DNA of 64,000 bases from assembly GCA_964542475.1 (NCBI GenBank), contig CAZIUL010000005.1, forward strand, positions 91,066 through 155,065. The letters are read 5' to 3'. The position numbers and the translations under genes are program-made. The stretch comes from an uncultured Phycisphaerales bacterium (lineage in GTDB: Bacteria > Planctomycetota > B15-G4 > CAYZWU01). A model generated the notes under the pieces. It worked only from the letters and a program-made list of their open reading frames with translations. It ran no database searches and had not been told where the DNA came from. Shown here in pieces: positions 8,945 to 28,664 of the stretch. Within the stretch, counting starts at the first letter, position 1. Each line of letters opens with the position of its first letter.

Positions 8945-8997
8945 GCACGGCTCCTGCAGTTTCTTGACGCTCTACATTGAAAAAAACGAGGATTCCC

Positions 8998-11505: not shown

Positions 11506-12816
11506 ATGCGCGGAAGCAGTCAGATGCAGATGCAGAAGGAGAAAGAAGTGACCAATTCAGAGAACCTTTCAGCAAAGCTGCTGGTGGTGGGTGGTGGAAT
11601 AGCGGGGATCACCGCTGCCCTCGAAGCCGCCGAAACAGGGCTTGATGTGGTACTCATCGAGCGAGAAGCTTATCTCGGTGGGCGCGTGGCAGCCATGAAC
11701 AAGTATTTTCCAAAGCTCTGCCCTCCCACCTGTGGGCTCGAGATCAACTTCCGCAGGCTGAGGAACAATCCCCGGATCCGCTTTTTCACTTTAACTGAGG
11801 TAAAAGGCATATCCGGCGGGAAAGGCGACTATGAAGTCACGCTTCTGGAAAACCCCCGGTTCGTGAAGGAAGACCGTCCGTTGGGTGATGATGTTGAGAA
11901 GGCCTGCGACGTCGAGAGGCCGGACAGCTTCAACTACGGAATAGGTAAGACAAAAGCACTTTACATTCCCCACGAGATGGCTTTTCCCATGCGCCATGTC
12001 ATCGATCCCGAGTACGTGAACGACGAACGCATGCAAAAATGCGTGGATGCCTGCAAGGAGGGCTCCATCGACCTGGCGATGAAACCCAGGGAGTTCACGG
12101 TCAAGACTGAGTCGATAATCTGGGCAACAGGCTGGAAGCCTTATGACGCGGCCAAGCTCGAGAACCTGGGTTTCGGGCAATACGAGAACGTGGTGACCAA
12201 CGTGATGATGGAGCGGCTGGCCGCTCCCAACGGTCCAACGGAAGGGAAGATAGTTCGGCCTTCAGATGGCGCCGAGATAAAGAGCGTGGCCTTTGTGCAG
12301 TGCGCCGGGTCGCGTGACGAGAACCACCTTCCCTACTGTTCCGCTGTTTGCTGCATGGCTTCCATGAAACAGGCATCGTATATCCGCGAGCTCTGTCCGG
12401 ATGCCGAGATCACCATCTTTTACATCGATGTGAGAGCGCCCGGCCGCCTCGAGGATGTTTATGTCAAGCTGCAGGCTGACGAGAAGATCGTTTTCCATCG
12501 AGGCAAGGTGGCCAAGGTGGAACAGCTCGATGGAAGCAAGAACTGCCTGGTAAAGGCTGAAAACACGCTTACCGGAGAGATGACCGAAAAGGAAGTCGAG
12601 CTCGTTGTCCTGGCGACCGGCATGGTGCCGAACACCGTGGATGAGCCGCCTCCTGTCGAGGTAAATCGTGATGACTTCGGCTTTCTCGTTCAGGAAGAAG
12701 GCAGCGGCGTGGTAGGAGCTGGCACTTCTGTCAGGCCGTTCGAGGTTTCCGCCACTGTCCAGGATGCAACAGGAGCGGTTTTAAAAGCGATCAGCAAGGT
12801 TAAGCCCAAGGAGTGA
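11506..12816 (+). CDS. qmoA: QmoA (HdrA-like FAD flavoprotein)
   Basis: FAD-binding VVGGGIAGITAALEAA and the HdrA-type Cys cluster CAGSRD…YCSAVCC. Overlaps qmoB by 4 nt. The true start may be an internal Met or a GTG at about 11524-11548 that is preceded by AAGGAG. Confidence 0.85.
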   Translation: MRGSSQMQMQKEKEVTNSENLSAKLLVVGGGIAGITAALEAAETGLDVVLIEREAYLGGRVAAMNKYFPKLCPPTCGLEINFRRLRNNPRIRFFTLTEVKGISGGKGDYEVTLLENPRFVKEDRPLGDDVEKACDVERPDSFNYGIGKTKALYIPHEMAFPMRHVIDPEYVNDERMQKCVDACKEGSIDLAMKPREFTVKTESIIWATGWKPYDAAKLENLGFGQYENVVTNVMMERLAAPNGPTEGKIVRPSDGAEIKSVAFVQCAGSRDENHLPYCSAVCCMASMKQASYIRELCPDAEITIFYIDVRAPGRLEDVYVKLQADEKIVFHRGKVAKVEQLDGSKNCLVKAENTLTGEMTEKEVELVVLATGMVPNTVDEPPPVEVNRDDFGFLVQEEGSGVVGAGTSVRPFEVSATVQDATGAVLKAISKVKPKE

Positions 12817-15107
12817 TAAAAATGGCGGATGACGCAGCAGCCAAGATCGGTGTATATATCTGTTCCGGGTACGGGATCGGCGAATCCATTGACGTGGAAA
12901 AGCTGGTTTCCATGGTAGAGGAGGAAGGCGAGGCCGCTGTATGCAAGGCCTTAGAGTCGCTGGAGTCCGAAGAGAGCGTAAACGCGATCAAGGAAGACAT
13001 CTCGTCGGAAGGCATCAACAGGCTTGTCCTTGCCGGGTTGTCGGGCCGGTTTACAAGGGACATCGAAACCGATGTGCACAACTTCGGACCCGAGGTGCTC
13101 GTGGAGAAGATCCCGTTGCGCGAGTTCGTCATCTGGCCGCATAAGAAACAAGACGAAGACACCCAGATGCTCGCGGAGGATTATCTTCGCATGGGGATTG
13201 TCAAGATGAAGAACTCAGCTCCCTCGCAGCCGGAGCCCGAAGAGGAGTTCAGCAAGCGCCTTTTAGTGGTGGGGGGCGGTGTCACAGGCTTGACCTCTGC
13301 GAAAGCCGCGGCAGGTGCAGGCTACGAGGTGGTACTCGTGGAGAAGGAAGCCGAGCTCGGTGGTCGTGTCAGGGGCTTTGCAAGCACATTTCCCAAAAGA
13401 CCGCCCTACCGCGATGTGGAGCCTACCGGTGTGGAGGAGATGATAGATGCGGTCAAAAGCAACGACTCGATCTCGGTTTACACTTCCTCTACCATATTAT
13501 CGATAACCGGCCAGCCCGGGCAGTTCGATGTCACCATCAAGAACGGAAACGGCGAAAACAAGGAGATGATCGGCGCGATCGTTCAGGCTTCCGGCTGGAA
13601 CCCGTACGATCCAAGCAACCTCGACCATCTGGGACACGGCAAATGCGCAAACGTCGTGACAAACATGGATGTCGAATCGATGGCCTTGAAAAATGGGTTC
13701 GAGCGCCCTTCGGATGGTTCCACTCCAAAGAGTGTGGCTTTTATCCAGTGTGCCGGATCCAGGGATGAGGAGCGCCTTCCATACTGTTCCGGCGTGTGCT
13801 GCAGGGTTAGCCTGAAGCAGGCAATGTACATACGCCAAAAACACCCTGACACCAAGGTGTACATCCTTTACAAGGATGTGCGTTCCCCCATGCAGTACGA
13901 GCTCTTCTATGCCCAGGCCCAGGAAGACGAAGGCATATTCCTGACCAAGGGCGAGGTGCAGAGCGTTGAGGAGAACAGCGACAAGAGCGTCACGATCACC
14001 GTGGATGATACGCTTCTTGGCGAGCACATAACCGTGACCGCTGACATGGCGGTTCTGGCGACCGGTATGGTGCCCACCACGCAGGTGGATGAACCGGCCG
14101 AGGAGGCGCCGGAAGGCGAGGAGCCCTCGAAAGAAACGGATGAAAAGCAGGCATCCGGAGACAACGGGGATGACAAGGATGCAGGGGCTTCCGCCGAGAA
14201 AGGTGCCCAAATCCTGAACCTGGGCTACCGCCTGGGCACTGACCTGCCCACGCTCAAGTACGGCTTCCCTGACTCTCACTTTGTTTGTTTTCCATATGAA
14301 ACACGACGCACAGGGATCTATGCCGCTGGTGCGGTCAGGGCTCCGCTGGATATCGATGCCTGCAAAAACGATGCGTTCGGGGCCACGTTGAAAGCCATCC
14401 AGGCCATGGAGCTGCTCTCACAGGGCCGTGCTGTTCACCCGAGGGTTATGGATCATTCACTTCCCGATTTCAACCTGAACCGCTGCACCCAGTGCAAGCG
14501 CTGCACGGAAGAGTGCCCGTTCGGTTCCTTGAACGAGGACGAAAAAGGCACGCCTCAGCCCAATCCCAACCGGTGCCGCCGCTGCGCGATCTGCCTTGGC
14601 GCCTGCCCTGAGCGTATAGTCACGTTCAACGAGTATTCCGTGCATATCATCGCCTCCCAGATCAAGACGATCGAGATCCCGGATGAAGAGGACGAGAAAC
14701 CTAGGATCCTGATCTTTGCCTGTGAAAACGATGCGATCCCCGCGCTCGAAATGGCGGGCGCACGCAAGAAGGAGTACAGCCCCTTCGTCAGGATCATACC
14801 GCTCAGATGCCTCGGCTCGATGAACATCGTGTGGATCGCTGATGCGCTTTCCACCGGCTTTGACGGGGTGATGTTGTTCGGGTGCAAATCCGGTGACGAT
14901 TACCAGTGCCATTACATCAAGGGCAGCGAGCTGTGCGAGACCAGGATGGACAATGTGAAAGATAAGCTGAAGCAGCTCGCGCTCGAGGAGGAGCGGGTGT
15001 TCCTGCAGGAGCTTTCAATCGATGAATACGACAAGGTACCGGGCCTGATCAACGAGTTCGCGGATCAGATCGAGGAGATAGGCTACAACCCGTTCAAGGG
15101 CTTCTGA
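12813..15107 (+). CDS. qmoB: QmoB (HdrA-like flavoprotein with 2x[4Fe-4S] and C-terminal MvhD-like domain)
   Basis: VVGGGVTGLTSAKAAA FAD motif. CAGSRDEERLPYCSGVCC. Ferredoxin motifs CTQCKRCTEECP and CRRCAICLGACP. Length 764 aa. Confidence 0.9.
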   Translation: MIKMADDAAAKIGVYICSGYGIGESIDVEKLVSMVEEEGEAAVCKALESLESEESVNAIKEDISSEGINRLVLAGLSGRFTRDIETDVHNFGPEVLVEKIPLREFVIWPHKKQDEDTQMLAEDYLRMGIVKMKNSAPSQPEPEEEFSKRLLVVGGGVTGLTSAKAAAGAGYEVVLVEKEAELGGRVRGFASTFPKRPPYRDVEPTGVEEMIDAVKSNDSISVYTSSTILSITGQPGQFDVTIKNGNGENKEMIGAIVQASGWNPYDPSNLDHLGHGKCANVVTNMDVESMALKNGFERPSDGSTPKSVAFIQCAGSRDEERLPYCSGVCCRVSLKQAMYIRQKHPDTKVYILYKDVRSPMQYELFYAQAQEDEGIFLTKGEVQSVEENSDKSVTITVDDTLLGEHITVTADMAVLATGMVPTTQVDEPAEEAPEGEEPSKETDEKQASGDNGDDKDAGASAEKGAQILNLGYRLGTDLPTLKYGFPDSHFVCFPYETRRTGIYAAGAVRAPLDIDACKNDAFGATLKAIQAMELLSQGRAVHPRVMDHSLPDFNLNRCTQCKRCTEECPFGSLNEDEKGTPQPNPNRCRRCAICLGACPERIVTFNEYSVHIIASQIKTIEIPDEEDEKPRILIFACENDAIPALEMAGARKKEYSPFVRIIPLRCLGSMNIVWIADALSTGFDGVMLFGCKSGDDYQCHYIKGSELCETRMDNVKDKLKQLALEEERVFLQELSIDEYDKVPGLINEFADQIEEIGYNPFKGF

Positions 15108-15384: not shown

Positions 15385-16590
15385 ATGCCAAAGGATTTAC
15401 CCAAAACGCCAATGCTTGACGAGCTGGAAAAAGGGCCATGGCCCAGCTTTGTCAAAGAGATCAAGATGGCTTCAGAGACCAGCGACATGAGTGTTGATTT
15501 GCTGGGCCAGCTTGAGCTTTCTTACAACGAGAAGATCGGTTACTGGAAACACGGGGGCATCGTGGGTGTCATGGGGTACGGCGGCGGTGTGATCGGCCGC
15601 TATTCGGCCCTCCCCGACAAGTTCCCGAGCATCTCCCATTTTCACACATTGCGGATAAACCAGCCTTCAGGATGGTTTTATACCTCCGATGTACTTCGCA
15701 AGATCTGTGATATATGGGACAGGCGGGGTTCCGGCCTGACCAACATGCACGGTTCCACAGGCGACATCATTTTCCTTGGAACGGTTACTGACGAGCTCGA
15801 GCCTGTATTCGAAGAGCTGACCGCCATGGGATTCGACCTCGGTGGATCCGGCTCTGATGTCAGAACCCCTAGCTGCTGTGTCGGTCCTGCCCGCTGCGAA
15901 TGGGCGTGCTACGACACGCTGAAAACTTGCTACGATTTCACGCAGCGCTACCAGGACGAGCTTCACCGCCCGGCCTTCCCGTACAAGTGGAAGTTCAAGT
16001 TTTCCGGGTGCGCGAACGACTGCGTTGCTGCCAAGGCCCGCGCCGACATCTCGGTGATCGGAACATGGCGCGACGACATACGCGTAGACCAGGCTGCTGT
16101 GAGCGATTATGCCAAGGGCGGCCTGAACATAGTCCGCGACGTGGTAGGCAACTGCCCCTCCAAATGCATGGAGTATGACGGCAATGAGCTCGCGATCGAC
16201 AACTCGAACTGCCGCAGGTGCATGCACTGCATAAACGTCATGACAAAGGCACTCAGGCCCGGAACAGACACGGGCGCCACGGTGCTTATCGGCTCCAAGG
16301 CTCCGATCGTGGAAGGTGCGCTTCTTTCTTCGGTGCTGATCCCGTTTCTCAAGATGGATGACCCGGAAGAGGTGGATGAGTTCTGCGATCTCATGGAAGA
16401 GATTATCGATGTCTGGTGCGAAGAGGGCAAGGCACGCGAGCGTATCGGCGAGTTCATACAGCGTGTTGGAATGGGCAACTTCCTCGACGCAGTCGGCCTT
16501 GAACCGACCCCGGAAATGGTTGCTTTCCCGCGAGACAACCCCTACGTCTTCTACGACCTCAGCGGCGAAGAAGAAGATGATGAAGGTTAG
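15385..16590 (+). CDS. dsrA: Dissimilatory sulfite reductase alpha subunit
   Basis: Siroheme/[4Fe-4S]-binding Cys motifs ([17 protein letters not shown]; CPSKCMEYD; [10 protein letters not shown]). Strong AAGGAGG ribosome-binding site. Followed directly by dsrB and dsrD. Confidence 0.95.
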
Positions 16591-16667: not shown

Positions 16668-17759
16668 ATGGCTGAGCCGGAAAAGAAAAAGAGAATAACC
16701 GATATAGGGCCTCCGAACTACGAACAGTTCCTGCCCCCGGTTATCAAGAATAACTATGGAAAGTGGAAGTACCACGAAATCGTCAAGCCGGGCGTCATGG
16801 TCCACGTGTCAGAGAGCGGTGACAAGCTTTACACTGTCAGGGCCGGATCCCCCCGCCTTGTCAGCACCAAAAAAATCCGCATGTACTCGGACCTGGCTGA
16901 CAAGTACTGCGGCGGGCACCTGCGCTTTACCAGCCGTCACAACGTGGAGTTTATGCTGGATGATGACAGCAAGATCGATGATCTCATCAAGGAGCTCGCC
17001 GATCTCGGCCATCCGGTGGGTGGAATCGGAAACGCCATATCGAGCATCGTGCACACCCAGGGATGGATTCACTGCCACTCGGCAGCGACCGACGCCTCTG
17101 GAATCGTAAAATGCGTCATGGACGATCTGGACGAGTATTTCACAAGCACCAAGCTTCCGGGCAAGATCCGCATCGCCCTGGCATGCTGTCTGAACATGTG
17201 CGGTGCTGTCCACTGCTCGGACATCGCGATTTTAGGTATTCACCGCAAGCCCCCTGTCACCGACCATTCGAAGCTGAAGAAGATGTGCGAGATCCCCACG
17301 GTCAGCGCATCATGTCCCACGGCTGCCATCAGGCCGGCCACGGTGGATGGATTTGAATCCGTGGAAGTGATCGAAGAGCAGTGCATGTTCTGCGCCAACT
17401 GCTACACGGTCTGCCCTGCCATGCCCATGAACGATCCGGTTGACGATGGAGTTTCGATCTGGGTCGGCGGCAAGGTTTCCGATGCGCGCACCCCTCCCAT
17501 GTTCTCCAAGCTGGCGGTTCCTTATATCCCGAACAACCCGCCTAGATGGCCGGAGGTTGTGAGTGTAATAAGGACGATCGTCGAGGTGTGGGCCAAGAAC
17601 GCAAGGCCGTACGAGCGCATAGGCGAGTGGATCGAGCGGGTCACATGGCCGCGTTTTTTCAAGCTCACCGGGATCGAGTTCCAGAAGGAACACATAGACG
17701 ATTTCAAGCATGCCGGCCTGAGTTTCAACAGGACCGCGCAGATTACCCATGTTCAGTAA
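16668..17759 (+). CDS. dsrB: Dissimilatory sulfite reductase beta subunit
   Basis: CHSAATD…[18 protein letters not shown] and a ferredoxin insert [18 protein letters not shown] ribosome-binding site. Confidence 0.95.
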
Positions 17760-17773
17760 CATTGAGGTGAGAT

Positions 17774-18028
17774 ATGTCGGATACAATGAGTGTCGAAGAA
17801 GTTGCCGATGCCATGTTCAAATTGGTAGAGGAAGCCTTCGGGAAAAAGAAGCTGAAACCCGGGGACCTCACCAAGGCAATGATTCAGATGTTCGAGGAAA
17901 AGGGTGTGGACAAGAAGCTTTGCAAGAAGGCGATCAGGGAGCTGGTCGAGAACGGCCGGTGCGTCTACACCTATTTCGGCGGAAGCTTCATCGAAATACC
18001 GCACAAGGAGGGGGCGGACAACGATTAA
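17774..18028 (+). CDS. dsrD: DsrD (small winged-helix protein that marks reductive-type dsr clusters)
   Basis: 84-aa Lys-rich protein immediately 3' of dsrB, ending …GRCVYTYFGGSFIEIP. Confidence 0.85.
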   Translation: MSDTMSVEEVADAMFKLVEEAFGKKKLKPGDLTKAMIQMFEEKGVDKKLCKKAIRELVENGRCVYTYFGGSFIEIPHKEGADND

Positions 18029-18061
18029 TCGTTGTGCCGGGCCGGTAAGGCCGGTGCGATT

Positions 18062-19462
18062 ATGAATATTAGTTGTCCCCGTCTCATGATCGCCGGCATG
18101 TCCGGCGATTCTGGAAAAACAATGATCACCGTAGGCCTTGCCCGGGCATTGACCGGGCAGGGCTTGACGGTTGCTACTTTTAAAAAAGGCCCCGACTACA
18201 TCGACGCTGCTTGGCTCGGCTCGGCCTCGGGAAGGGCGTGCAGGAACCTGGACACCTTTCTTGCCGAACCCGAAGCTGTAAAGCGCTCTTTCATGAGGAA
18301 CGCTCATCGTACGGGCGTCAACCTGGTCGAAGGGAACCGAGGCTTTCATGATGGAATGGATGTCGAGGGAAGCCACAGTTCCGCTGCTCTTTCAAAGCTG
18401 ATTGAATGCCCTGTGGTCCTTACGCTGGATGTCACCAAGACAACCAGGAGCGCGGCAGCGTTCGTGATCGGATCGAGGATGCTTGATCCCGGAGTGAACA
18501 TCCGCGGAGTGATCATCAACCGGGTTGCCGGGGAAAGGCACGAAAGAGTGGTGCGCCGATCGATAGAGAAACACTGCGGTGTGCCTGTCTTCGGCTCAAT
18601 ACCAAAGCTGCCTCCTGAATCCAGGATACCTTCACGCCACTTGGGCCTCATCACTCCGGGTGAGGAAGGCCGGATCCGCGAGTTGATCGATTCCCTTGGA
18701 AGACTCGCTGAAAAGCAACTGGATCTCGGCGGGTTGTTGGAAGTGGCCCAAAATGCTGCCGAGCCCGAAGGGGAAACCGGTGCGGTGCCTTTCACGGCCG
18801 ACGGTCCAAAGGTAAAAAAGGCCAGGATCTGTTTTCTGAACGATTCCGCCTTCTCTTTCTACTACCCGGAAAACCTGGAAGCGCTGGAAGAGGCCGGAGC
18901 TGAACTGGTTCCTGTTTCCGCCCTGGACGCCCAAGAGCTTCCCGGGTGCGAGGCTCTTTATGTGGGAGGCGGGTTTCCGGAAACGCACGCCGCGGACCTG
19001 GCCGATAACCGCAATTTTCGCGAAAGCCTGTTCAATGCGGCACAAAGCGGTTTGCCCGTTTATGCGGAATGCGGCGGATTGATATACATGGCCGAAAGCC
19101 TTTCCTGGAAAGGGAAGGAGTATCCCATGGCCGGTGTTTTTCCGGTGCGCATGAGGATGGAAGAGAAGCCGCAGGGTCACGGCTACACCAGGTACCTGGT
19201 GGACGAAGAAAACCCCTTCTTCGAGAAGGGCGTTGAATTGAAAGGACACGAGTTTCACTACTCCCGTATCGAAAAAGGGGAGGTGAAAAGCGTATTTGAC
19301 GTAAAACGCGGCACGGGATGCGGCAAGGGCCGCGACGGGCTGCTCAGATGGAGAGTTCTTGGAACCTATCTTCATGTTCACGCCCTCGGGTGCCCTGTTT
19401 GGGCGGATGGGATCGTGAAAGCCGCCGAAAAGTTTGGAAAGGAAAACACAACATGGGATTGA
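18062..19462 (+). CDS. dsrN: DsrN (CbiA/CobB-family amidotransferase; siroheme amidase homologue)
   Basis: N-terminal P-loop GMSGDSGKT. C-terminal glutamine amidotransferase domain with AECGGLIYM. Position after dsrABD. Confidence 0.8.
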   Translation: MNISCPRLMIAGMSGDSGKTMITVGLARALTGQGLTVATFKKGPDYIDAAWLGSASGRACRNLDTFLAEPEAVKRSFMRNAHRTGVNLVEGNRGFHDGMDVEGSHSSAALSKLIECPVVLTLDVTKTTRSAAAFVIGSRMLDPGVNIRGVIINRVAGERHERVVRRSIEKHCGVPVFGSIPKLPPESRIPSRHLGLITPGEEGRIRELIDSLGRLAEKQLDLGGLLEVAQNAAEPEGETGAVPFTADGPKVKKARICFLNDSAFSFYYPENLEALEEAGAELVPVSALDAQELPGCEALYVGGGFPETHAADLADNRNFRESLFNAAQSGLPVYAECGGLIYMAESLSWKGKEYPMAGVFPVRMRMEEKPQGHGYTRYLVDEENPFFEKGVELKGHEFHYSRIEKGEVKSVFDVKRGTGCGKGRDGLLRWRVLGTYLHVHALGCPVWADGIVKAAEKFGKENTTWD

Positions 19463-21177
19463 AGCGAAAAGAGAAGAAGAAGGGCGGCTTAAAGTCGTTG
19501 AAAAGCCATTCGGGCGGATCCTCGGTGGAAACATCACCGGAGCGCCCGGTTCACATCGAAAAGACAGCCCCTTGTATGAGCGGATGCCCCCAGGGGACGA
19601 ACATTCGCGCGCTCATGAACACGATCTCTCTGGCTGAGAAGCACGAGATCTCATACGACGACGCTTTCAAAAAGGGCTTCGAGATCATAACCGAGAAGAA
19701 CCCTTTTCCCGCTGTTTGCGGCCGTGTCTGCCCGCATCCGTGCGAGACCGAGTGCAACCGCAAGGAAAAAGAAGGGCCGGTTGCGATCAACTCTTTGGAG
19801 CGGTTCATCGGAGACTACGGAATAGAGCACGGACTTGAGTTGAAAAGGCTTGAAGGTGCCGAGGACCGCGAAGAGAAGATAGCGGTGATCGGTGCCGGCC
19901 CTGCCGGGCTGGCCTGCGCTTATCACCTGGCGAGGATGGGCTACAAGGTGACGGTATTCGAGGGCTTTCCAAAGGCGGGCGGAATGCTTCGATACGGCAT
20001 CCCCGCCTACCGCCTGCCAAGAGAGGTTCTCGACCATGAGATTGACAGTATCCTGAAACTCGGGGTTGAGCTCAAGTGCGATGTCAGCATCGGAACCGAC
20101 ATTCCCTACGAGGACCTCAAAAAAGAGTATAGCGCGATCTTTGTAGGCATTGGCGCGCACAAGGGCCGCTCTCTCAGGCTCGAAGGCGAGGACTCGGAAA
20201 ACGTGCTCACAGGCGCCGAGTTCCTGAACATGGCCAACTCGGGCAAGGAGATCCCGATCGGAAAGAAGGTCGTGGTCATCGGCGGCGGCGACACGGCTGT
20301 TGATGCCGCGCGCGTGGCCAGACGGATGGGCGCGGACGAGGTGTTGATCCTCTACCGCCGTACCCGCACCGAGATGCCTGCCATTGACGAGGAGATCGAG
20401 GGCGCAGAGGAAGAAGGGATCAAGATCGACCTGCTCGTGGCCCCTTCCGGCTTCACCGTGGAAAACGGCAGAGCCGTCAAGATGAAGTTTCAGCGGTGCG
20501 AGCTCGGTGAGCCTGACGATTCCGGCCGCCGCCGCCCCGTTCCCATAGAAGGCGACTATTTCGACGTCCAAGCCGATTTCTTCATCCCTGCCATCAGCCA
20601 GGCGCCGATTTTTGACGGCCTGGAAGAGGTTGGCAATCCCAAGGACTGGGTCAAGGCGGACGAGTGGATGCAGACCGAAAACGAGAACGTGTACGCCGGC
20701 GGCGACGTTGTCAATCTCGGGCTGGTGACCATCGCTATCGCCCAGGGCAGGCTGGCTGCGAACACAATTCACGAAAATTTGAGGGGACAAGAGCATACCA
20801 AGCCCGGAAACCCTCCGCCGGTTATCGGGGTGGACAAGGTGCTCCCCAATTTTTACGAGGAGAAGGCCGTGGCCACGTGCGAGCAGCTGTCCGTGGATGC
20901 CCGCTTTGCCGAGCCTGACAAGGAGATTGCCGAGGGGCTTTCCCGCGAACAGGCGATCGAGGAAGCAAAACGCTGCATGAGCTGCGGATTTTGTTTCGAG
21001 TGCGGGGAGTGCTGGAACTATTGCCAGGACCAGGCGGTAATCAAGCCTTATGTAAAAGGCGAAAAATATACGTTCAAAATGGAGCTTTGCAACGGCTGCA
21101 AGAAATGTGCTGAGCAATGCCCCTGCGGCTACATCGAGATGTACCTGCCGGGTCAGGCCCCGGTTTATGATTATTGA
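19453..21177 (+). CDS. dsrL: DsrL-like NAD(P)H-dependent oxidoreductase (GltD-like small-subunit fold plus C-terminal 2x[4Fe-4S] ferredoxin domain)
   Basis: N-terminal CMSGCPQG…CGRVCPHPCETECNR. Two Rossmann motifs (VIGAGPAGLACAY; VVIGGGDTAVDAA). C-terminal CMSCGFCFECGECWNYC…CNGCKKCAEQCPC. Start taken at ATG 19453, overlapping the dsrN stop; the longer ORF from 19318 overlaps dsrN. Confidence 0.7.
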   Translation: MGLKRKEKKKGGLKSLKSHSGGSSVETSPERPVHIEKTAPCMSGCPQGTNIRALMNTISLAEKHEISYDDAFKKGFEIITEKNPFPAVCGRVCPHPCETECNRKEKEGPVAINSLERFIGDYGIEHGLELKRLEGAEDREEKIAVIGAGPAGLACAYHLARMGYKVTVFEGFPKAGGMLRYGIPAYRLPREVLDHEIDSILKLGVELKCDVSIGTDIPYEDLKKEYSAIFVGIGAHKGRSLRLEGEDSENVLTGAEFLNMANSGKEIPIGKKVVVIGGGDTAVDAARVARRMGADEVLILYRRTRTEMPAIDEEIEGAEEEGIKIDLLVAPSGFTVENGRAVKMKFQRCELGEPDDSGRRRPVPIEGDYFDVQADFFIPAISQAPIFDGLEEVGNPKDWVKADEWMQTENENVYAGGDVVNLGLVTIAIAQGRLAANTIHENLRGQEHTKPGNPPPVIGVDKVLPNFYEEKAVATCEQLSVDARFAEPDKEIAEGLSREQAIEEAKRCMSCGFCFECGECWNYCQDQAVIKPYVKGEKYTFKMELCNGCKKCAEQCPCGYIEMYLPGQAPVYDY

Positions 21178-21227: not shown

Positions 21228-21545
21228 ATGGCCATTTTCGAGCATGGAGAAATAAAGATCGAGGTAGACGAAGATGGGTTCATGCAGGAACCTGAACAGT
21301 GGACCAAAGATGTTGCCGCCGCGCTGGCAACGACCGAAGGTGTTGATGAGCTGACGGATGAACACTGGAAACTTGTGGACTACTTGAGGGAGTATTACCA
21401 GGAGTTCGGTATCGCCCCCATGATCCGCAAGCTGTGCAAGAAGACAGGTTTTCCTCTCAAGAAGATCTATGAACTTTTTCCGTCAGGCCCGGCAAAAGGC
21501 GCCTGCAAGGTCGCCGGTCTTGCCAAGCCCACTGGCTGCGTCTAA
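21228..21545 (+). CDS. dsrC: DsrC (sulfur-carrier/trisulfide substrate protein)
   Basis: Ends with the diagnostic C-terminal arm CKVAGLAKPTGCV, containing both conserved Cys. AAGGAGAG ribosome-binding site 8 nt upstream of ATG 21228. Confidence 0.95.
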   Translation: MAIFEHGEIKIEVDEDGFMQEPEQWTKDVAAALATTEGVDELTDEHWKLVDYLREYYQEFGIAPMIRKLCKKTGFPLKKIYELFPSGPAKGACKVAGLAKPTGCV

Positions 21546-21604: not shown

Positions 21605-21802
21605 TAACCCCGAAGCCGGCGCGTTTGCCGTTTTTATACATGGCTTTTGCCGGCTGATGGGACGAAGCTTTGACAACAATGCCGGCAGTGCGTCAGAAGG
21701 GCCTCCACTTGATCAGGCGGAGATCCTTCGCTCGGCCCGTAAACGGTGTGGTATGATGTTTTGTTGACAGGCAAAAACAGTTGTTGATCCGGACAGGCCT
21801 AG

Positions 21803-22354
21803 ATGCTGAATAGCCTATTATCGCAGAAGAAAAAAGCCATCCTTGAGAGGTGGCAGAAGCTGGTACTGGAATCTTATCCGGACGACACCGCCTCTTTTTT
21901 CAAGAAAGAGAGCGACCGGTTCAACAACCCCGTGGGGTTTACGATCAGCCATGATCTTGGTAAGCTTTTCGATAAACTGCTCGAAGAGATGGACCGGGAC
22001 GAGTTCAATAGCGATGAGTTCGTTTCCCTCATGGAGTATTTCATAAAAATACGATCCGTGCAGGGATTCAAGCCATCCCACGCGGTCTCGTTCGTTTTTC
22101 AGCTCAAAAGCGCTATCAGGGAAACCCTGGCGGACGAGATACGGGAAGGGAATGCCTGCGGGGAGCTGTGCCGGTTCGAATCGAGGCTGGACGAGGTAGG
22201 CCTTCTGGCCTTTGACTCGTACATGGAGAGCAGGGAAAAAATATTTGACTTGAGAACGAGACAGATCAAGGCCGGCAGAGAACGGCTTTTGCGAAAAGCC
22301 GGAATGTCAATGGACGAGAAAAACGAAAAGGATCAAAGAAATGGCGAGACCTGA
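21803..22354 (+). CDS. Hypothetical protein. Candidate DsrT (RsbRD-N-like), which precedes dsrMKJOP in many sulfate reducers and green sulfur bacteria.
   Basis: The call rests on position only: immediately upstream of dsrM and in the same orientation. No catalytic motifs recognised. Confidence 0.35.
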   Translation: MLNSLLSQKKKAILERWQKLVLESYPDDTASFFKKESDRFNNPVGFTISHDLGKLFDKLLEEMDRDEFNSDEFVSLMEYFIKIRSVQGFKPSHAVSFVFQLKSAIRETLADEIREGNACGELCRFESRLDEVGLLAFDSYMESREKIFDLRTRQIKAGRERLLRKAGMSMDEKNEKDQRNGET

Positions 22355-22384: not shown

Positions 22385-23419
22385 ATGATTTCGCAAGAGA
22401 ACCCTTTATCTGCAGCTCCACCCAAGAACAACAAGCTGATTTTCATGGCGGGAGGGGGCGCGGTCGTGTTCGCCCTGCTTTGGTTGATCGGACTTCTGCC
22501 GCTCATTTTCGGGGTGCTGATCCCGTACATCGCCGCTCTGGTTTTTTTTGTGGGATTCATCTCCAAGGTGACCGGCTGGGCGAAGTCCCCGGTCCCTTTC
22601 CGCATCCCCACAACCTCCGGCCAGCAGAAGTCGCTCCCGTGGATCAAGCATAGCAACCTGGAGAGCCCGCACAACCTGCGCGGCGTGATCGGCAGGATGT
22701 TCCTGGAGATCGTTCTGTTCAGGTCTTTGTTCAAGAACACCCGAACAGAGCTGAGAAGCGGGCCCAAGGTTGTGTACAGCACCAGCCTCTGGCTGTGGGC
22801 CGCTGCCATGGCGTTTCACTGGTGCTTCCTGGTCATCTTCTTGAGGCACATCAGGTTTTTCGCGGAACCGGTGCCCGGTTTCGCGCTCTTTTTGCAGGAG
22901 ATCGACGGGCTTTTCAAGCTCGGGGTGCCAACGCTTTTCTTGACGAACATCGTTATCCTGGGCGCCCTGGGGTTTCTCGTTTTCAGAAGGCTATTCGACC
23001 CGAAGATCCGCTACATCTCCCTCTTTTCGGACTACTTCGCGCTGTTCCTCATCTTGGGCATCGTGATCACGGGCATGCTGACGCGCCATGTTTTCAAGAC
23101 CGATATCGTGGAGGTGAAGAAGCTGGCCGCGGGGCTCATAACGCTCCATCCCTATGTACCCGGATCGGGCGCGATAGGTTTTTGGTTCTACGCCCATTTC
23201 TTTCTGCTCTGCTCCCTTCTGGCATACTTCCCGTTCAGCAAGCTGATGCACATGCCGGGGGTTTTTCTCAGCCCGACGAGGAACCTCGCAAACAACAACC
23301 GGGTGAAGAGGCACATAAACCCCTGGGACTATCCGGTCAAGGTGCATACCTATGAGGAGTACGAGGACGAGTTCAGGGACAAAATGAAAGCGGCTGGAAT
23401 GCCTTTGGAGAAGGAATAA
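22385..23419 (+). CDS. dsrM: DsrM (NarI-like di-heme b membrane subunit of the DsrMKJOP complex)
   Basis: Five to six transmembrane helices with conserved His. Directly followed by dsrK. Confidence 0.9.
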   Translation: MISQENPLSAAPPKNNKLIFMAGGGAVVFALLWLIGLLPLIFGVLIPYIAALVFFVGFISKVTGWAKSPVPFRIPTTSGQQKSLPWIKHSNLESPHNLRGVIGRMFLEIVLFRSLFKNTRTELRSGPKVVYSTSLWLWAAAMAFHWCFLVIFLRHIRFFAEPVPGFALFLQEIDGLFKLGVPTLFLTNIVILGALGFLVFRRLFDPKIRYISLFSDYFALFLILGIVITGMLTRHVFKTDIVEVKKLAAGLITLHPYVPGSGAIGFWFYAHFFLLCSLLAYFPFSKLMHMPGVFLSPTRNLANNNRVKRHINPWDYPVKVHTYEEYEDEFRDKMKAAGMPLEKE

Positions 23420-23421
23420 AG

Positions 23422-25074
23422 ATGTCAGACGAAAACACACCAAAAGCTGAAGAGCTCGTCCAGATCGACTTCAAGCCGTGCGGCAAGGACTGGATGGACC
23501 CTAAGGTCGAGATGAAGAAGGGCACGTTCAACTACATAGCCAACCCGAAGAGCCTGGAATACCTCGACCTCCCGTCTCTCGGCACGTGGTATCCCCTGGA
23601 CGAGGATTGGAAGCTTCCGGAAAACTGGAAGGAGACCGTTCTCAACGGCATAAGAGACCGGCTGGTGAAGTACCGGTCGTTCAAGATATTCATGGATATC
23701 TGCGTCCGGTGCGGAGCGTGCGCTGACAAGTGCCACTTCTTCATCGGCGGGGGCGATCCCAAGAACATGCCCGTGCTGCGCGCCGAGCTTTTGCGATCGA
23801 TCTACCGCAAAGAGTTCACCAAGGCGGGGAAGATATTGAGCAAGCTGGGCGGAGGCAGGGAGCTGACCCTTGACGTGATAAAGGAGTGGTTTCTCTACTT
23901 CTACCAGTGCACCGAGTGCCGTCGCTGCTCCGTGTTCTGCCCCTACGGGATCGACACGGCCGAGATAACCATGATGGGCAGGGAGCTTCTAAACCTCATC
24001 GGCGTCGGCATCGACTGGATCTGCACACCCGCCGCGAACTGCTTCCGCACGGGCAACCACCTCGGCATCCAGCCCCACGGCTTCCAGGACAGCGTGGATT
24101 TCGCGATAGACGATCTCGAGGAGATCACCGGCATCAAGGTCGATGCCCCGGTGAACAAGAAAGGCGCTGAGATACTTTTCGTGGTGCCCTCCGCCGACTA
24201 CTTTGCGGACCCGCACTACTACGGCTTTCTCGGCTACATGGCCCTGTTTCACGAGATCGGCCTGGACTATACCTTCAGCTCGTTCGCCTCGGAAGGCGGC
24301 AACTTTGGCCTTTTCCACTCGGCTGACATGATGAAGCGCCTGAACTCCAAGATCTATTCCGAGGCCAGGCGGCTCGGCGTTAAGTGGATAATCGGCGGAG
24401 AGTGCGGCCACATGTGGCGCGTTCTCCACCAGTACATGGACACGATCAGCGGCCCGGCCGATTTCCTTGAGGTGCCGGTTTCGCCATTGACAGGGACCAG
24501 GTTCGACAACGCTAGCTCCACCAAGATGGTGCACATCTGCGAGTTCACGGCCGACCTGATAAAGGAGGGCAAGCTGAACCTCGACAAGAGCCGCAACGAC
24601 AACTGGAAGGTCACCTATCACGACTCGTGCAACACGGCGCGCGCGATGGGTATCCTGGACGAGCCGCGTTATGTGATCAAAGCCGCTTGCAACCATTTTT
24701 ACGACATGCCTGAGAACACCATCAGGGAGCAGACGTTTTGCTGCGGCAGCGGTTCTGGCATAGGCACCGACGAAAACCTGGAGATGCGTATGCGCGGGGG
24801 GCTCCCGCGCGCGAACGCGGTGAAGCACGTGCACGAAAAACACGGTGTGAACCTGCTGTCATGCATTTGCGCCATAGACAAGGCAACGCTGCCCGCGCTC
24901 ATGGATTTCTGGGTTCCGGGAGTAGAGGTCGGCGCGGTGCACGAGCTTTTGGGCAACGCGCTGGTCATGAAGGGCGAGAAGAGATCCACCGACCTGCGCG
25001 GCGAGCCTTTGCCGGGCATAGAGGACGCCGAAGGCGACGAGGAAAGCCAAGAGGAGGGCAAAGCTGATGAATGA
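23422..25074 (+). CDS. dsrK: DsrK (HdrD-like catalytic subunit with CCG domains)
   Basis: Ferredoxin motifs CVRCGACADKCH and CTECRRCSVFCPYG. CCG-domain cysteines (…HDSCNTAR…FCCGSGSGIG). Confidence 0.95.
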   Translation: MSDENTPKAEELVQIDFKPCGKDWMDPKVEMKKGTFNYIANPKSLEYLDLPSLGTWYPLDEDWKLPENWKETVLNGIRDRLVKYRSFKIFMDICVRCGACADKCHFFIGGGDPKNMPVLRAELLRSIYRKEFTKAGKILSKLGGGRELTLDVIKEWFLYFYQCTECRRCSVFCPYGIDTAEITMMGRELLNLIGVGIDWICTPAANCFRTGNHLGIQPHGFQDSVDFAIDDLEEITGIKVDAPVNKKGAEILFVVPSADYFADPHYYGFLGYMALFHEIGLDYTFSSFASEGGNFGLFHSADMMKRLNSKIYSEARRLGVKWIIGGECGHMWRVLHQYMDTISGPADFLEVPVSPLTGTRFDNASSTKMVHICEFTADLIKEGKLNLDKSRNDNWKVTYHDSCNTARAMGILDEPRYVIKAACNHFYDMPENTIREQTFCCGSGSGIGTDENLEMRMRGGLPRANAVKHVHEKHGVNLLSCICAIDKATLPALMDFWVPGVEVGAVHELLGNALVMKGEKRSTDLRGEPLPGIEDAEGDEESQEEGKADE

Positions 25075-25450
25075 CAAGGGAAAAATCTTGTTCGGCCTGG
25101 TGATCTTTTTCGTGCTTTTGTCCATCCCCTTCTGGTATACGCTGGCAAGCGGGAAGCGGGGTTACTACCCCGAGATGGAAAAGGCTGCCAAGGGCGAAAA
25201 ATGCATCATGGAAAAACAGGAGATGATACCGGGGCACATGGGGCTCTTGAACGAATGGCGGGACCTTGTTGTGCGGGAAGGCAAGAGGACGCACACTGCT
25301 GAGGACGGGACCGAATACAAGATGAGCCTCACGAACACATGTCTTGACTGCCACCAGGACAAGAGCGAGTTCTGCGACAAGTGCCACGATTATCTCGGCG
25401 TAAAACCGTACTGCTGGGATTGCCATGTCGACCCAAAGGAGATCGAGTGA
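25067..25450 (+). CDS. dsrJ: DsrJ (triheme periplasmic cytochrome c)
   Basis: N-terminal membrane anchor. Three heme-binding motifs: CLDCH, CDKCH, CWDCH. Confidence 0.9.
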   Translation: MNDKGKILFGLVIFFVLLSIPFWYTLASGKRGYYPEMEKAAKGEKCIMEKQEMIPGHMGLLNEWRDLVVREGKRTHTAEDGTEYKMSLTNTCLDCHQDKSEFCDKCHDYLGVKPYCWDCHVDPKEIE

Positions 25451-26235
25451 TGGATGTGAACAGAAGAAGGTTTCTCAAGGTAGCGGGGGTCGGCGCGCTC
25501 GGGCTAGCGGGTGCTAAACCCGTGCTGGATGCCTTTTCCGATGAGGAAACGCACGAAAGCGCTCCTTCCAAGGATAAGAAGGGCAAACAGCACGCCGGAA
25601 AGAGGCTGGCAATGGCCATCGACCTGAAGAAGTTTGATGAAAACACTGCCAAGGCCTGCCGGGATGCCTGCCACATAACCCACAACGTTCCTGATTTCGG
25701 CAATGCAAAGGACGAGATCAAGTGGATCTGGACCGAGCCGTTCGGGCACGCGTTCCCGGAGCAGGAGCACGAGTTCATCGAGGATGCGCTCAAATCCGCG
25801 TCTGTGCCGGTGTTGTGCAACCACTGCGACAATCCGTCGTGTGTCAGGGTTTGCCCCACGCAGGCCACCTTTCGCAGGGATGACGGCATCGTGGTGATGG
25901 ACTGGCACAGATGCATCGGGTGCAGGTACTGCATGGCTGCATGCCCCTACGGATCCAGGAGCTTCAACTGGCGTGATCCCAGGGAGTTCATCGATAAGAT
26001 CGATCCGAAGTTTCCCACGCGGTCGCGAGGTGTCGTGGAGAAGTGCACCTTCTGCGACGAACGGCTGGCCGATGGCAAGGAACCCGCGTGCGTTGAGGCG
26101 TGCGGCAACGATGAGATGATATTCGGGGATGTCGAAGACCCCGAATCGAAGATACGGGAGGTGCTGAGTAAGCGTTTCTCGATCAGGCGTAAACCCGGGT
26201 TGGGTACGAAGCCGGAAGTATACTATCTCGTGTGA
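25450..26235 (+). CDS. dsrO: DsrO (Tat-exported ferredoxin-like Fe-S subunit)
   Basis: Twin-arginine signal NRRRFLKVAGVGALGLAG. Multiple CxxCxxCxxxCP clusters. The ATG overlaps the dsrJ stop (ATGA). Confidence 0.9.
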   Translation: MDVNRRRFLKVAGVGALGLAGAKPVLDAFSDEETHESAPSKDKKGKQHAGKRLAMAIDLKKFDENTAKACRDACHITHNVPDFGNAKDEIKWIWTEPFGHAFPEQEHEFIEDALKSASVPVLCNHCDNPSCVRVCPTQATFRRDDGIVVMDWHRCIGCRYCMAACPYGSRSFNWRDPREFIDKIDPKFPTRSRGVVEKCTFCDERLADGKEPACVEACGNDEMIFGDVEDPESKIREVLSKRFSIRRKPGLGTKPEVYYLV

Positions 26236-26242
26236 GGCAGAC

Positions 26243-27451
26243 ATGCTAGAAAAGGCGATGTTCGGAAGTAGAAGGTACTGGGCCTGGGTCGTTTTTCTGC
26301 TGGTGTTGATTGGAGTCGGCCTCCTATGCTATCTCCAGCAGCTTAGCCAGGGGCTTGGAATAACTGGAATGGGCAGGGACGTGACATGGGGATTCTACAT
26401 CGCCCAGTTCACCTTCCTGGTGGGTGTGGCAGCATCAGCCGTGATGGTGGTTCTGCCCTACTACCTGCATGACTACAAGGCGTTCGGCAAGCTCACCATC
26501 TTGGGGGAGTTTCTTGCCATTTCCGCTGTGATCATGTGCCTGCTGTTCATTTTCGCGGACCTGGGCCAGCCCCAGCGCGGCATGAACATGATACGGTTCA
26601 TGAGCCCCAAATCGGTCCTCTTCTGGGACATGATAGTGCTCAACGGCTACCTCGTGATCAACCTCGTGTTGAGCTGGAAGAGCCTTGACGCGGAGCGAAA
26701 CTCTGTCAAGCCTTCCGGGTGGTGGATCAAGCCGCTGATCATAGTATCGGTCCCATGGGCTATCAGCATCCACACGGTCACGGCAATGATCTACTGCGGC
26801 CTCCCCGGCCGTTCCTTCTGGTACACGGCCATCCTTGCCCCGCGCTTTCTCGCGTCGGCGTTCGCATCCGGCCCCGCGCTCCTGATACTGATCTGTTTCA
26901 TCCTGAAAAAGTTCACCAGGTTCGACGCGGGCAAGGAGCCCGTGCAGAAGCTAGCGGTAATTGCCACGTATGCGATGTTTCTAAACGTTTTCTTTTTCCT
27001 GCTCGAGGTGTTCGTGGCGGTTTACGGAGCCATCCCGGAGCACACTCAGCATTTCGAATACCTGTTCCTCGGCATCGGCGGGAAATCCAAGCTCGTGCCG
27101 TGGATGTGGATGGCCCAGTTCATCTCTGTGTTTGCGATAGTCATCTTCGCTGTTCCTCGGCTCAGAAAGAACGAGAACCTGCTGAAATGGGGGTGCATCG
27201 GCATCTTCGTCGCCATCTGGATAGACAAGGGGCTCGGCATGGTTGTGACCGGCTTCGTGCCTTCGCCGCTTGAGGGCGTGACAGAGTACTGGCCCACCTT
27301 CAGGGAGCTTTGCATCACGATCGGTGCCTATGCGGTGGGTGCGCTGATACTCACAGTGCTCTACAAGGTGGCGCTGGAGGTACGGGGAGAGGTTTGCAGG
27401 CCTTGCTGCGAAGAGGTGGAGCATGAAGCGACAAAGCAAACCGCACCATGA
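26243..27451 (+). CDS. dsrP: DsrP (NrfD/PsrC-like integral membrane quinone-interacting subunit)
   Basis: About 10 transmembrane helices, 402 aa. Position after dsrO. Confidence 0.9.
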   Translation: MLEKAMFGSRRYWAWVVFLLVLIGVGLLCYLQQLSQGLGITGMGRDVTWGFYIAQFTFLVGVAASAVMVVLPYYLHDYKAFGKLTILGEFLAISAVIMCLLFIFADLGQPQRGMNMIRFMSPKSVLFWDMIVLNGYLVINLVLSWKSLDAERNSVKPSGWWIKPLIIVSVPWAISIHTVTAMIYCGLPGRSFWYTAILAPRFLASAFASGPALLILICFILKKFTRFDAGKEPVQKLAVIATYAMFLNVFFFLLEVFVAVYGAIPEHTQHFEYLFLGIGGKSKLVPWMWMAQFISVFAIVIFAVPRLRKNENLLKWGCIGIFVAIWIDKGLGMVVTGFVPSPLEGVTEYWPTFRELCITIGAYAVGALILTVLYKVALEVRGEVCRPCCEEVEHEATKQTAP

Positions 27452-28664
27452 CAGCAGCGGGGAGAACGGTAACGGAACACCGGGCGCCCTGGTGGTGTGC
27501 GGGATCAACCACGCCACGGCCACGCTCTCCGAGCGTGAGCCGTTCCAGATAACCAGGCAGGACCTCATTCCCGCGCTCAAGGAGCTCGAATCCATCAGGG
27601 GCGTGAGAGAGAGCCTTGTCCTTTCCACCTGCAATCGGTTCGAGGCTTACATGGTGCTCGATGCCCACGAGGAACCGTTCACCGTGCTTCGCGATTTTTT
27701 CATCCGTTTGAAGGGGATCGATCCCAAGCCCCTGCGCAGCCTTTTCTACGTGCGCCACGAGAGCACCGCTGTCAGGCACCTTTTCCGCGTGATCGGCGGG
27801 CTCGATTCCATGGTGCTCGGAGAGTACCAGATCAAAAACCAGGTCAAGGAGGCGTACAGCGCGGCATGCAGCGTGAAAGCGCCGGGCAAGGTGCTCCACA
27901 GGCTTTTTCACGCGGCTTTCAGGACGGGCAAATCGGTACAGACACACACGGGCTTGGGCGCGGGGCGCATGTCGGTTGCAGGCATGGCTGTCGGGATAGT
28001 CGAGGAACGCCTGTCCCCTGATGATACGGTTCTGTTAATAGGGGCGAACGAGAACATTCGCATCGTTGCGGATAGGCTGAAGTCCGCCGGGTTCGAACGG
28101 TTTGTTTTCGTGAACCGGACCTCATACAAGGCCAGGAAGCTGGCAAGCCGCTACGGCGGTGAAGGGTCCGGCCTCGATGAACTGTCCGACGCGCTGAAGG
28201 AAGGGGTAGGTGCTTTGGTCAGCTGCACGAGCGCTCCCGGATTCATCGTGACGGCAGAGCAGCTCGAAGCGCTGGCTGCTGACAACCGCTGCCCCGGCCT
28301 TCTGATCGACATGGCTGTTCCCAGGGACATCGAGCGGCCGGAAACCTCTTCTTTTCCGGCGGAACTGATCGACCTCGAGGACCTCAAGGCCTGCAGGAAG
28401 AACGGAGAACAAATCCGCGAGCAGGAGCTCCCCAGGGCTGAAAGCATAGTGGAGGACAAGGTCAGCACGTTTCAGAGCTGGATGGAGAACGCTTTCGATG
28501 AGGGCACCGGAGCGCTCATCAAAGAGTACGACCGCATCAGGCTGGCACGCCTGAAAGATGCGCTTGCCTCGTTCGAGGCGAAAGACCGCGATGTGCTCGA
28601 GCGTTTCTCCCGTGACCTCATGCAGGACTTCCTCAAGGTGCCCACGCAGAACTTCACCGAGTGA
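27423..28664 (+). CDS. hemA: Glutamyl-tRNA reductase (tetrapyrrole/siroheme biosynthesis)
   Basis: Active-site LSTCNRFE motif and NADPH-binding LLIGANENIR region. Overlaps the dsrP 3' end by 29 nt. Confidence 0.85.
   Translation: MKRQSKPHHDSSGENGNGTPGALVVCGINHATATLSEREPFQITRQDLIPALKELESIRGVRESLVLSTCNRFEAYMVLDAHEEPFTVLRDFFIRLKGIDPKPLRSLFYVRHESTAVRHLFRVIGGLDSMVLGEYQIKNQVKEAYSAACSVKAPGKVLHRLFHAAFRTGKSVQTHTGLGAGRMSVAGMAVGIVEERLSPDDTVLLIGANENIRIVADRLKSAGFERFVFVNRTSYKARKLASRYGGEGSGLDELSDALKEGVGALVSCTSAPGFIVTAEQLEALAADNRCPGLLIDMAVPRDIERPETSSFPAELIDLEDLKACRKNGEQIREQELPRAESIVEDKVSTFQSWMENAFDEGTGALIKEYDRIRLARLKDALASFEAKDRDVLERFSRDLMQDFLKVPTQNFTE

Follow-up and report, generated by a model that had tools for sequence, protein, structure and literature searches.

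A predicted DsrL-2C oxidoreductase encoded within a complete sulfate-reduction gene cluster of an uncultured bacterium

A gene between dsrN and dsrC in a 64,000-nucleotide stretch of contig CAZIUL010000005.1 (GenBank assembly GCA_964542475.1, positions 91,066 to 155,065; the whole stretch is called the window below) encodes a DsrL-like flavoprotein. The locus raises the question of which type of DsrL this protein represents and whether it would work with a reductive DsrAB. At a probability of about 80%, our answer is that the gene encodes a DsrL-2 of the subgroup DsrL-2C, which would feed electrons from NADPH to reductive DsrAB. A preliminary description of the window had already proposed a DsrL-2-type enzyme, and this proposal was borne out by the published criteria, the YRR motif, a Ser/Arg signature, a tree, profile scores and the identity to the published protein HER00049. 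The range given there, positions 17774-21177, contains the dsrL-like gene as one of three consecutive genes on the plus strand (Table 1).

Loffler et al. (2020; PMC7596348) recognise a DsrL by three criteria: a complete gene in an organism with dsrAB, the order of the domains, and the lack of linkage to genes for pyruvate/ketoisovalerate:ferredoxin oxidoreductases. The window gene is an intact open reading frame (ORF) for 574 amino acids (aa), with dsrA and dsrB located 1.7-4 kb upstream on the same strand. Its product shows the published domain order, i.e. Fer4_20 (aa 37-126), Pyr_redox_2 (aa 142-432) and Fer4_21/Fer4_7 (aa 514-563). The linker measures about 60 aa by our count versus "~100" in the published work, where the borders of the domains may be drawn differently. 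The gene is flanked by dsrN and dsrC, and no pyruvate/ketoisovalerate:ferredoxin oxidoreductase genes were found within the window. Pfam and NCBIfam assignments confirmed the neighbourhood given in the preliminary description, with dsrAB and dsrN upstream and dsrC and dsrMKJOP downstream; the dsrD-like gene between dsrB and dsrN was assigned by position, size and predicted fold.

The YRR motif distinguishes DsrL-2 from DsrL-1, and the DsrL-2 proteins of organisms with reductive DsrA have Ser or Thr and Arg at the N-terminal positions of NfnB Cys39 and Cys42 (PMC7596348). The window DsrL has S28 and R31, matching the DsrL-2 signature for reductive DsrAB. The NADP-specificity residues, which the preliminary description had singled out for inspection, were present as YRR at aa 301-303, aligned to the YRR of NfnB. 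In our sample residue 31 followed the genomic context with no exception: it was Arg in dsrD-linked proteins (20+ loci), Cys in proteins linked to oxidative DsrAB (rDsrAB), and Leu in Lambdaproteobacteria and SAR324. The published pattern is thus reproduced on an independent set. The NAD segment and the linker of the window DsrL (80 and 62 aa) are close in length to those of the published DsrL-2 P0058 (79 and 64 aa), and the approximately 32-aa insertion and the longer linker described for DsrL-1A are absent, as judged via P0058 and by the description of DsrL-1A. P0058 is HER00049.1 of Zixibacteria SpSt-1246. It is 61% identical to the window DsrL over 95% of the latter, and both the published tree and the published table list it as a DsrL-2. 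The published set was linked to the present matches via this accession, and our tree was labelled by genomic context.

From its sequence, the window DsrL is predicted to comprise one flavin adenine dinucleotide (FAD) module, two [4Fe-4S] clusters in an NfnB-like domain and two more in the C-terminal ferredoxin domain. All Cys and Glu ligands and YRR are invariant in an alignment with 19 homologues. Among them, C41, C45, C93, C97, C101 and E116 align to NfnB C47, C51, C90, C96, C100 and E117. The FAD/NADP(H) module aligns collinearly to NfnB, StnC and NfnA, and the predicted local distance difference test (pLDDT) values of its AlphaFold2 (AF2) model are mostly 80-95. The YRR motif has been related to NADP(H) specificity, and the YRR-bearing DsrL-2 of Desulfurella amilsii is active solely with NADP(H) (PMC7596348). 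The motif in the window DsrL thus predicts the use of NADPH specifically and not of NAD(P)H in general. The Lys-rich tail (aa 1-24) precedes the S-x-x-R-P motif and could serve as a docking peptide.

A scan of species-representative genomes gave at least 80 loci with named organisms among the matches listed, to which the following statements on loci refer. In these loci dsr, apr and qmo genes were located by tblastn with the window proteins as queries. Among the matches listed, the best locus encodes a protein 61% identical to the window DsrL. Proteins with at least 48% identity sit in dsrA-B-D-(N)-L-C-T-MKJOP clusters, the exceptions being short or truncated contigs and locus L041, which has sat, apr and qmo and no dsr gene within 8 kb. 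The hosts of these dsr-clustered relatives belong to Ignavibacteria, Zixibacteriota, Acidobacteriota, Gemmatimonadota, Actinomycetota, Planctomycetaceae and others. Five loci lie beside dsrAB without dsrD (two of Gammaproteobacteria and one each of Magnetococcales, Nitrospinota and Desulforhopalus IMCC35007). The remaining loci have no dsr genes within 8 kb, and many of them encode fusions of 800-1350 aa. The window DsrA is 58-73% identical to the DsrA of dsrD-linked loci versus 45-47% to the DsrA encoded beside dsrL without dsrD, and it groups with the former.

In a neighbour-joining tree of 99 relatives and 398 core columns, the window DsrL was placed in a clade of 34 members (72% bootstrap) consisting of dsr-adjacent loci and database homologues including P0058. 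A larger DsrL clade of 56 members, which holds all the dsr-linked proteins, splits from the fused or short relatives without dsr genes at 69% bootstrap. This tree, with P0058 as its published DsrL-2 reference, places the protein with dsr-linked proteins and not with generic GltD/NfnB-type relatives outside dsr clusters, the outcome that would have spoken against the preliminary description. Within the 34-member clade, the window DsrL forms a separate sub-clade (98% bootstrap) with P0001, P0002, P0004 and P0009, which come from metagenome-assembled genomes (MAGs) labelled Planctomycetota. Profile scores pointed in the same direction: the window DsrL scored 871 bits against the profile of dsrABD-linked proteins, 696 bits against that of proteins with the same architecture and no dsr genes, 656 bits against that of rDsrAB-linked proteins and 592 bits against that of fused or short proteins. 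The dsrABD-linked profile thus exceeded the next-best group by 175 bits, and the published reference behaves alike.

Three named DsrL proteins serve for comparison. HER00049 is of similar length (564 versus 574 aa) and has the same Ser/Arg, YRR and Cys pattern, and it also adjoins reductive dsrAB and a dsrD-like gene. However, it lies outside the sub-clade labelled Planctomycetota, the only one in which dsrN abuts or overlaps dsrL. The DsrL-2 of D. amilsii belongs to the same family and shares YRR, and its NADP(H)-specific activity is the basis of the functional inference. It differs in its branch of the published tree, which it shares with Acidulodesulfobacterales, and in a host without the sulfate-activation pathway; this protein is known here by description. 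The DsrL-1A of Allochromatium vinosum resembles the window DsrL in the overall domain order and in its partnership with a DsrAB-type enzyme. By the description in PMC7596348, DsrL-1A differs in that it has no YRR, prefers NAD(H), carries an insertion of about 32 aa in the NAD module and a linker longer by about 30 aa, has Cys where the window DsrL has Arg31, and works with oxidative rDsrAB.

By analogy with the biochemistry of other DsrL proteins, NADPH would be oxidised at the DsrL flavin and single electrons would pass along the four clusters of the protein to reductive DsrAB. With this supply, DsrAB would form the DsrC trisulfide by reduction of sulfite, and DsrMKJOP, encoded just downstream, would then reduce the trisulfide with quinol-derived electrons. 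By this route DsrL may tie sulfate respiration to the NADPH pool of the cytoplasm in an uncultured bacterium labelled Planctomycetota. The preliminary description had suggested an NAD(P)H-linked electron input to DsrAB and DsrC in a sulfate reducer, in parallel with DsrMKJOP. An input to DsrAB would agree with the current model, but NAD(P)H is too broad a term where YRR predicts NADPH. The parallel arrangement does not hold, because in the current model DsrL feeds DsrAB while DsrMKJOP reduces the DsrC trisulfide, so that the two serve successive steps. A reduction of the DsrC trisulfide by DsrL with NADPH is not proposed in the DsrL literature examined.

Several points weigh against the assignment to DsrL-2C and the proposed electron flow. 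The only biochemically characterised DsrL-2, that of D. amilsii, belongs to another branch of the published tree, and its activity was measured with artificial acceptors. Direct electron transfer from DsrL-2 to reductive DsrAB would follow from the interpretation given in the literature. Our tree, with its moderate neighbour-joining support, was built without DsrL-1, D. amilsii and canonical GltD sequences. The YRR motif is a sign of NADPH use and not of DsrL identity, because it is common to all NfnB-like relatives. The direction in which DsrL operates is not readable from sequence. Since our view was limited to 64 kb, an oxidative rDsrAB or dsrEFH may be encoded elsewhere in the genome. An alternative is that the same DsrL-2 runs mainly in reverse or in both directions, passing electrons from DsrAB to NADP+ during sulfur disproportionation or oxidation. 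According to the literature, DsrL-2 proteins occur with oxidative and reductive DsrAB alike and several organisms with dsrAB, dsrD and dsrL disproportionate sulfur, and gene content alone gives no direction for DsrL-2. We nevertheless regard this as unlikely: every rDsrAB-linked protein has Cys31 whereas the window DsrL has Arg31, the window DsrA groups with dsrD-linked DsrA, a dsrD-like gene is present while neither dsrEFH nor a second dsrAB was found within the 64-kb window, and the literature argues that NADPH is required as the donor for reduction.

Much less probable still are two readings that start from the resemblance to NfnB. The protein could be a generic NfnB/GltD-type oxidoreductase that transfers electrons from NADPH to ferredoxin or another acceptor and is merely sited in a dsr cluster, with no DsrAB partnership. 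In public databases the window protein and its homologues are listed solely as "NAD(P)-binding protein" or as "glutamate synthase beta subunit-like", its best solved relatives are NfnA/StnC and NfnB, and NfnB nests within the DsrL-2 part of the published tree. Against this stand the synteny with dsrAB, dsrD and dsrC, which is kept across Ignavibacteria, Zixibacteria, Acidobacteriota, Gemmatimonadota, Actinomycetota and others, the 175-bit preference for the dsr-linked profile, the lack of the Ser/Arg signature in relatives without dsr genes, and the lack of a gene for an NfnA/NfnS partner next to dsrL; the odds of this reading are very low. An NfnB-like flavin-based bifurcating or confurcating enzyme, in which NADPH electrons would be split between DsrAB and a second acceptor via the C-terminal ferredoxin domain, is just as improbable. 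Two residues tied to bifurcation in the literature speak for it, i.e. Glu116 at the Glu-ligand position of the flavin-proximal cluster, where StnC/NfnA have Lys, and Arg180 in GGMLRYGIP, which equals NfnB R201. However, no gene for a second flavin or [2Fe-2S] subunit lies nearby, the closest folds are the non-bifurcating NfnL-like modules of StnC/NfnA, and no bifurcation is reported for DsrL in the DsrL literature examined.

A DsrL-2C serving reductive DsrAB thus remains our preferred reading, and the comparison with NfnB and StnC/NfnA also bears on how its iron-sulfur (Fe-S) clusters would be held. No DsrL structure is present in the PDB. NfnB/NfnL (T. maritima 4YLF_B and P. furiosus 5JCA_L) is about 40% identical to DsrL over aa 38-446 and shares the FAD/NADPH module, YRR and the proximal-cluster ligands including Glu. 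It differs in having an N-terminal CxxC, a length of about 470 aa, no linker or C-terminal ferredoxin domain, and a dependence on NfnA as its partner subunit. Its structure and the DsrL model agree over no more than 429 columns (TMq 0.64). The window protein itself was ruled out as an NfnB by its CxxC at 508/511, its C-terminal ferredoxin domain and the lack of an NfnA-like gene nearby. The NfnL-like module of StnC and of Bfu-type NfnA (8OH5_C, 9BOV_A and 9N5U_A) was the best PDB match of DsrL both by sequence (E = 2e-108) and by fold (TMq 0.75 over about 600 columns), and it is collinear with it through the linker to an RCxxC motif after the flavin module. StnC and NfnA differ from DsrL in being fusions of 950-1180 aa with NuoG/Fdh-like domains, in having Lys for Glu at the proximal cluster, and in belonging to transhydrogenase complexes with no linkage to dsr genes.

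We lean towards the view, drawn from sequence comparison, that the NfnB-like Fe-S domain is circularly permuted throughout the PRK12771/StnC-type clade, DsrL included, and that Cys508 and Cys511 would complete the distal cluster. In a phmmer comparison, DsrL aa 490-511 align to NfnB residues 21-42, the segment with NfnB Cys39 and Cys42. The pattern of this segment, EA.RCxxC, stands behind the flavin module in all PRK12771/StnC-type relatives as well. The native N-terminus of DsrL matches Fer4_20 positions 28-111 with 69.7 bits; when DsrL residues 471-511 are put in front of residue 37 in an artificial construct, the match covers positions 6-111 and reaches 102.5 bits. Relatives without the ferredoxin domain terminate right after this CxxC. 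Ten Cys are invariant at the C-terminus of DsrL, while the ferredoxin domain needs eight. In the StnC paper the GltD-like region with two clusters spans residues 102-565, and, counted from our alignment, the second Cys of RC562LEC565 falls on residue 565. The AF2 model of DsrL has a pLDDT of about 75 at residues 481-511. On this evidence the likely ligands would be C41, C101, C508 and C511 for the distal cluster and C45, C93, C97 and E116 for the proximal one. Neither an explicit list of distal-cluster ligands for StnC/NfnA nor a DsrL structure was found in the literature. Ser28 and Arg31 may not be cluster ligands at all, because the NfnB-type CxxC pair is located after the flavin module; the published assignment of these positions as ligands (PMC7596348) is NfnB-templated. 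If the permutation is true, Ser28 and Arg31 (in oxidative types Cys31) would have been wrongly assigned as ligands in the published work, the "linker" would serve as a return path in the structure instead of a flexible tether, and the Arg/Cys31 switch would mark something else, e.g. a docking surface for DsrAB. The permutation concerns the whole family and not the window locus specifically, and it could alter the choice of residues for mutation.

The gene model of dsrL is well defined. The longest ORF starts at 19318, but the actual start is the ATG at 19453, because all 19 aligned homologues begin there (MxLKR..KKKK). An identical product of 574 aa was called by independent gene callers on 13 public metagenome contigs. 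The ORF is far beyond chance (best homologue E = 1e-294; NCBIfam PRK12771 603 bits, cutoff 516). The sequence GGAAAGGA is found 9-16 nt upstream of the ATG. The overlap of dsrL with the dsrN stop, given in the preliminary description as a sign of translational coupling, is real, and the upstream dsrN ORF spans 18032-19462 with ATG 18062 as the likeliest start. The overlap is not a family trait, because the close relatives L086 and L087 have a gap of 6 nt and other lineages have a dsrN-dsrL spacing of 51-529 nt or the order L-N. Tight coupling of dsrN and dsrL is thus a trait of the window lineage only. Scans for promoters and terminators in the window gave no signal above shuffled controls, and a terminator-like hairpin at 21617-21630, downstream of dsrC, is a mere hint of an operon end. 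The dsrL gene is probably co-transcribed with dsrAB, the dsrD-like gene, dsrN and dsrC.

The 84-aa protein encoded between dsrB and dsrN was treated as a divergent DsrD by position and predicted fold, and not by demonstrated homology. Its gene is kept at the same position in more than 20 loci, including L006-L032. Neither the single sequence nor a 15-sequence profile matched Pfam DsrD (PF08679) or PDB 1UCR, and hhalign against 1UCR gave a probability of 0.6%. The protein belongs to a family of more than 3,200 homologue clusters, and the listed homologues carry no Pfam domain. Its AF2 model (pLDDT 87.6) consists of three helices and a beta-hairpin, a winged helix as in DsrD; a Foldseek search with this model returned only generic winged-helix matches (E > 0.02). 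The protein is Lys-rich, and its YTYFGGS motif stands at the site of YWSSGSTT in the DsrD of Desulfobacterota. K28, D31, K34, K51 and Y65-x-Y67-x-G69-G70-S71, among others, are invariant in the family.

A complete sat-aprBA-qmo-dsrAB-(dsrD-like)-N-L-C-T-MKJOP cluster surrounds dsrL. With hppA and hemA, the full sulfate-reduction pathway is packed in 26 kb (2182-28664). An ORF for 92 aa (8666-8944) lies ahead of the gene for a CxxCxxCC protein, which precedes the QmoC-like gene; the latter is located upstream of qmoA rather than after qmoB. The gene order from the CxxCxxCC gene to dsrP is conserved in L086 and L087 (70-72% identity), whose 10-kb flanks stop short of sat and apr. The C-terminus of DsrC ends in ...GACKVAGLAKPTGCV, with both motif Cys present. 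In L086 (12240-13643) and L087 (12282-13757), hemA (glutamyl-tRNA reductase) lies between dsrC and dsrT. Because hemA is found inside the cluster in the window and in these close relatives, tetrapyrrole supply, like dsrN, stays part of the dsr cluster. No rRNA or tRNA genes were detected in the window by Rfam and tRNA scans.

Table 1 Features of the dsrL gene and of the surrounding sulfate-reduction cluster (window positions)
Feature	Position	Strand	Basis or remark
hppA	2182-4296	-	Pfam
sat	4734-5972		Pfam
aprB	6100-6540		Pfam
aprA	6643-8529		Pfam
CxxCxxCC protein	8977-9798		Pfam
QmoC-like protein	9891-11060		Pfam
qmoA	11506-12816		Pfam
qmoB	12813-15107		Pfam
dsrA	15385-16590	+	NIR_SIR; reductive bacterial type
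dsrB	16668-17759	+	NIR_SIR; reductive bacterial type
dsrD-like winged-helix protein, 84 aa	17774-18028	+	Position, size, predicted fold
dsrN (siroheme amidase, CobB family)	18062-19462	+	TIGR00379 428 bits; CbiA and GATase_3
dsrL start/dsrN stop overlap, 10 nt	19453-19462	+	ATG 19453 versus TGA 19460-19462, read from sequence
dsrL (DsrL-2, probably subgroup 2C), 574 aa	19453-21177	+	Pfam, NCBIfam PRK12771, tree, profiles, HER00049 identity
Lys-rich N-terminal tail, aa 1-24	19453-19524	+	K8 and K10 invariant; AF2 pLDDT <50, predicted disordered
S28-P-E-R31 motif	19534-19545	+	Translation SPER; S28, R31 and P32 invariant in 19-homologue alignment
N-terminal Fe-S domain, aa 37-126	19561-19830	+	Fer4_20 profile positions 28-111
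FAD module with embedded NADP(H) module, aa 142-445	19876-20787	+	Pyr_redox_2 (aa 142-432), E = 8e-31
Y301-R302-R303, NADP(H) 2'-phosphate-binding motif	20353-20361	+	Aligned to T. maritima NfnB YRR; invariant in family
KEIAEGLSREQAIEEAKRC508MSC511 segment	20920-20985	+	Candidate homologue of NfnB/GltD N-terminal CxxC segment
C-terminal dicluster ferredoxin region	20986-21144	+	Fer4_21/Fer4_7 (aa 514-563); all eight Cys invariant
dsrC	21228-21545	+	PF04358, TIGR03342; CysB-X10-CysA motif at C-terminus
dsrT	21803-22354	+	RsbRD_N
dsrMKJOP	22385-27451	+	Nitrate_red_gam, Fer4/CCG, Fer4_11, NrfD
hemA	27423-28664		Overlaps dsrP end

Related DsrL and DsrD-like proteins are carried by MAGs labelled Planctomycetota, and the cluster at 90% identity that contains the window AprA has a representative from a "Planctomycetota bacterium" MAG. 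The host is probably an uncultured bacterium with this label. Among the relatives, the DsrL-2C clusters have the order dsrD-N-L in Ignavibacteria, Zixibacteria and the window lineage, and dsrD-L-N in Acidobacteriota, Gemmatimonadota and others (L006-L029). The DsrL of the Acidobacteriota type has an insertion of about 11 aa in the NADP segment (91 versus 79-80 residues). The rDsrAB-linked DsrL proteins of L028, L035, L036 and L037 (MAGs of Gammaproteobacteria, Magnetococcales and Nitrospinota) combine YRR with an insertion of 37-52 aa in the NADP segment; a similar insertion is described for DsrL-1A, which has no YRR (PMC7596348). Proteins with the complete DsrL architecture (545-570 aa, with all Cys and in most cases YRR) are also encoded, with no dsr genes within 8 kb, in L033, L034, L038-L040, L042, L044, L045, L052 and L062. 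This unlinked set includes Lambdaproteobacteria and SAR324, with Leu31 and with CRE replacing YRR. An apparent fusion of DsrL and DsrN in L017 and L029 was rejected, because the long ORFs do not share the reading frame of dsrN. They are probably overlapping frames with few stops, as GC-rich DNA can produce.

Two further gene pairs in the window were noted. A flavoprotein that resembles CoA-disulfide reductase and carries a fused rhodanese domain (40030-41709, minus strand) adjoins a small dicluster ferredoxin-like protein (41930-42337, plus strand), and the organism may use this pair in the chemistry of persulfides or polysulfides. A response-regulator receiver domain fused to a glycine-cleavage H-protein-like (lipoyl-type) domain, an unusual output domain, is encoded at 48206-48991 (minus strand) and adjoins a PAS histidine kinase gene (49052-50881).

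The arrangement described here is not new: dsrABDL-2 clusters, the pairing of DsrL-2 with a reductive DsrAB and a subgroup named DsrL-2C (Diao et al. 2023) are already in the literature, a fosmid of 2005 from an uncultured sulfate reducer is in the published DsrL table, and DsrL in Planctomycetes was listed already in 2020 (PMC7596348). The window locus makes the question of DsrL-2 function no more testable than many published loci. It adds one more uncultured lineage, labelled Planctomycetota, with a whole sulfate-reduction pathway plus a probable DsrL-2, and it speaks for taking dsrL type, dsrD and dsrAB type as indicators that sulfur metabolism is reductive.

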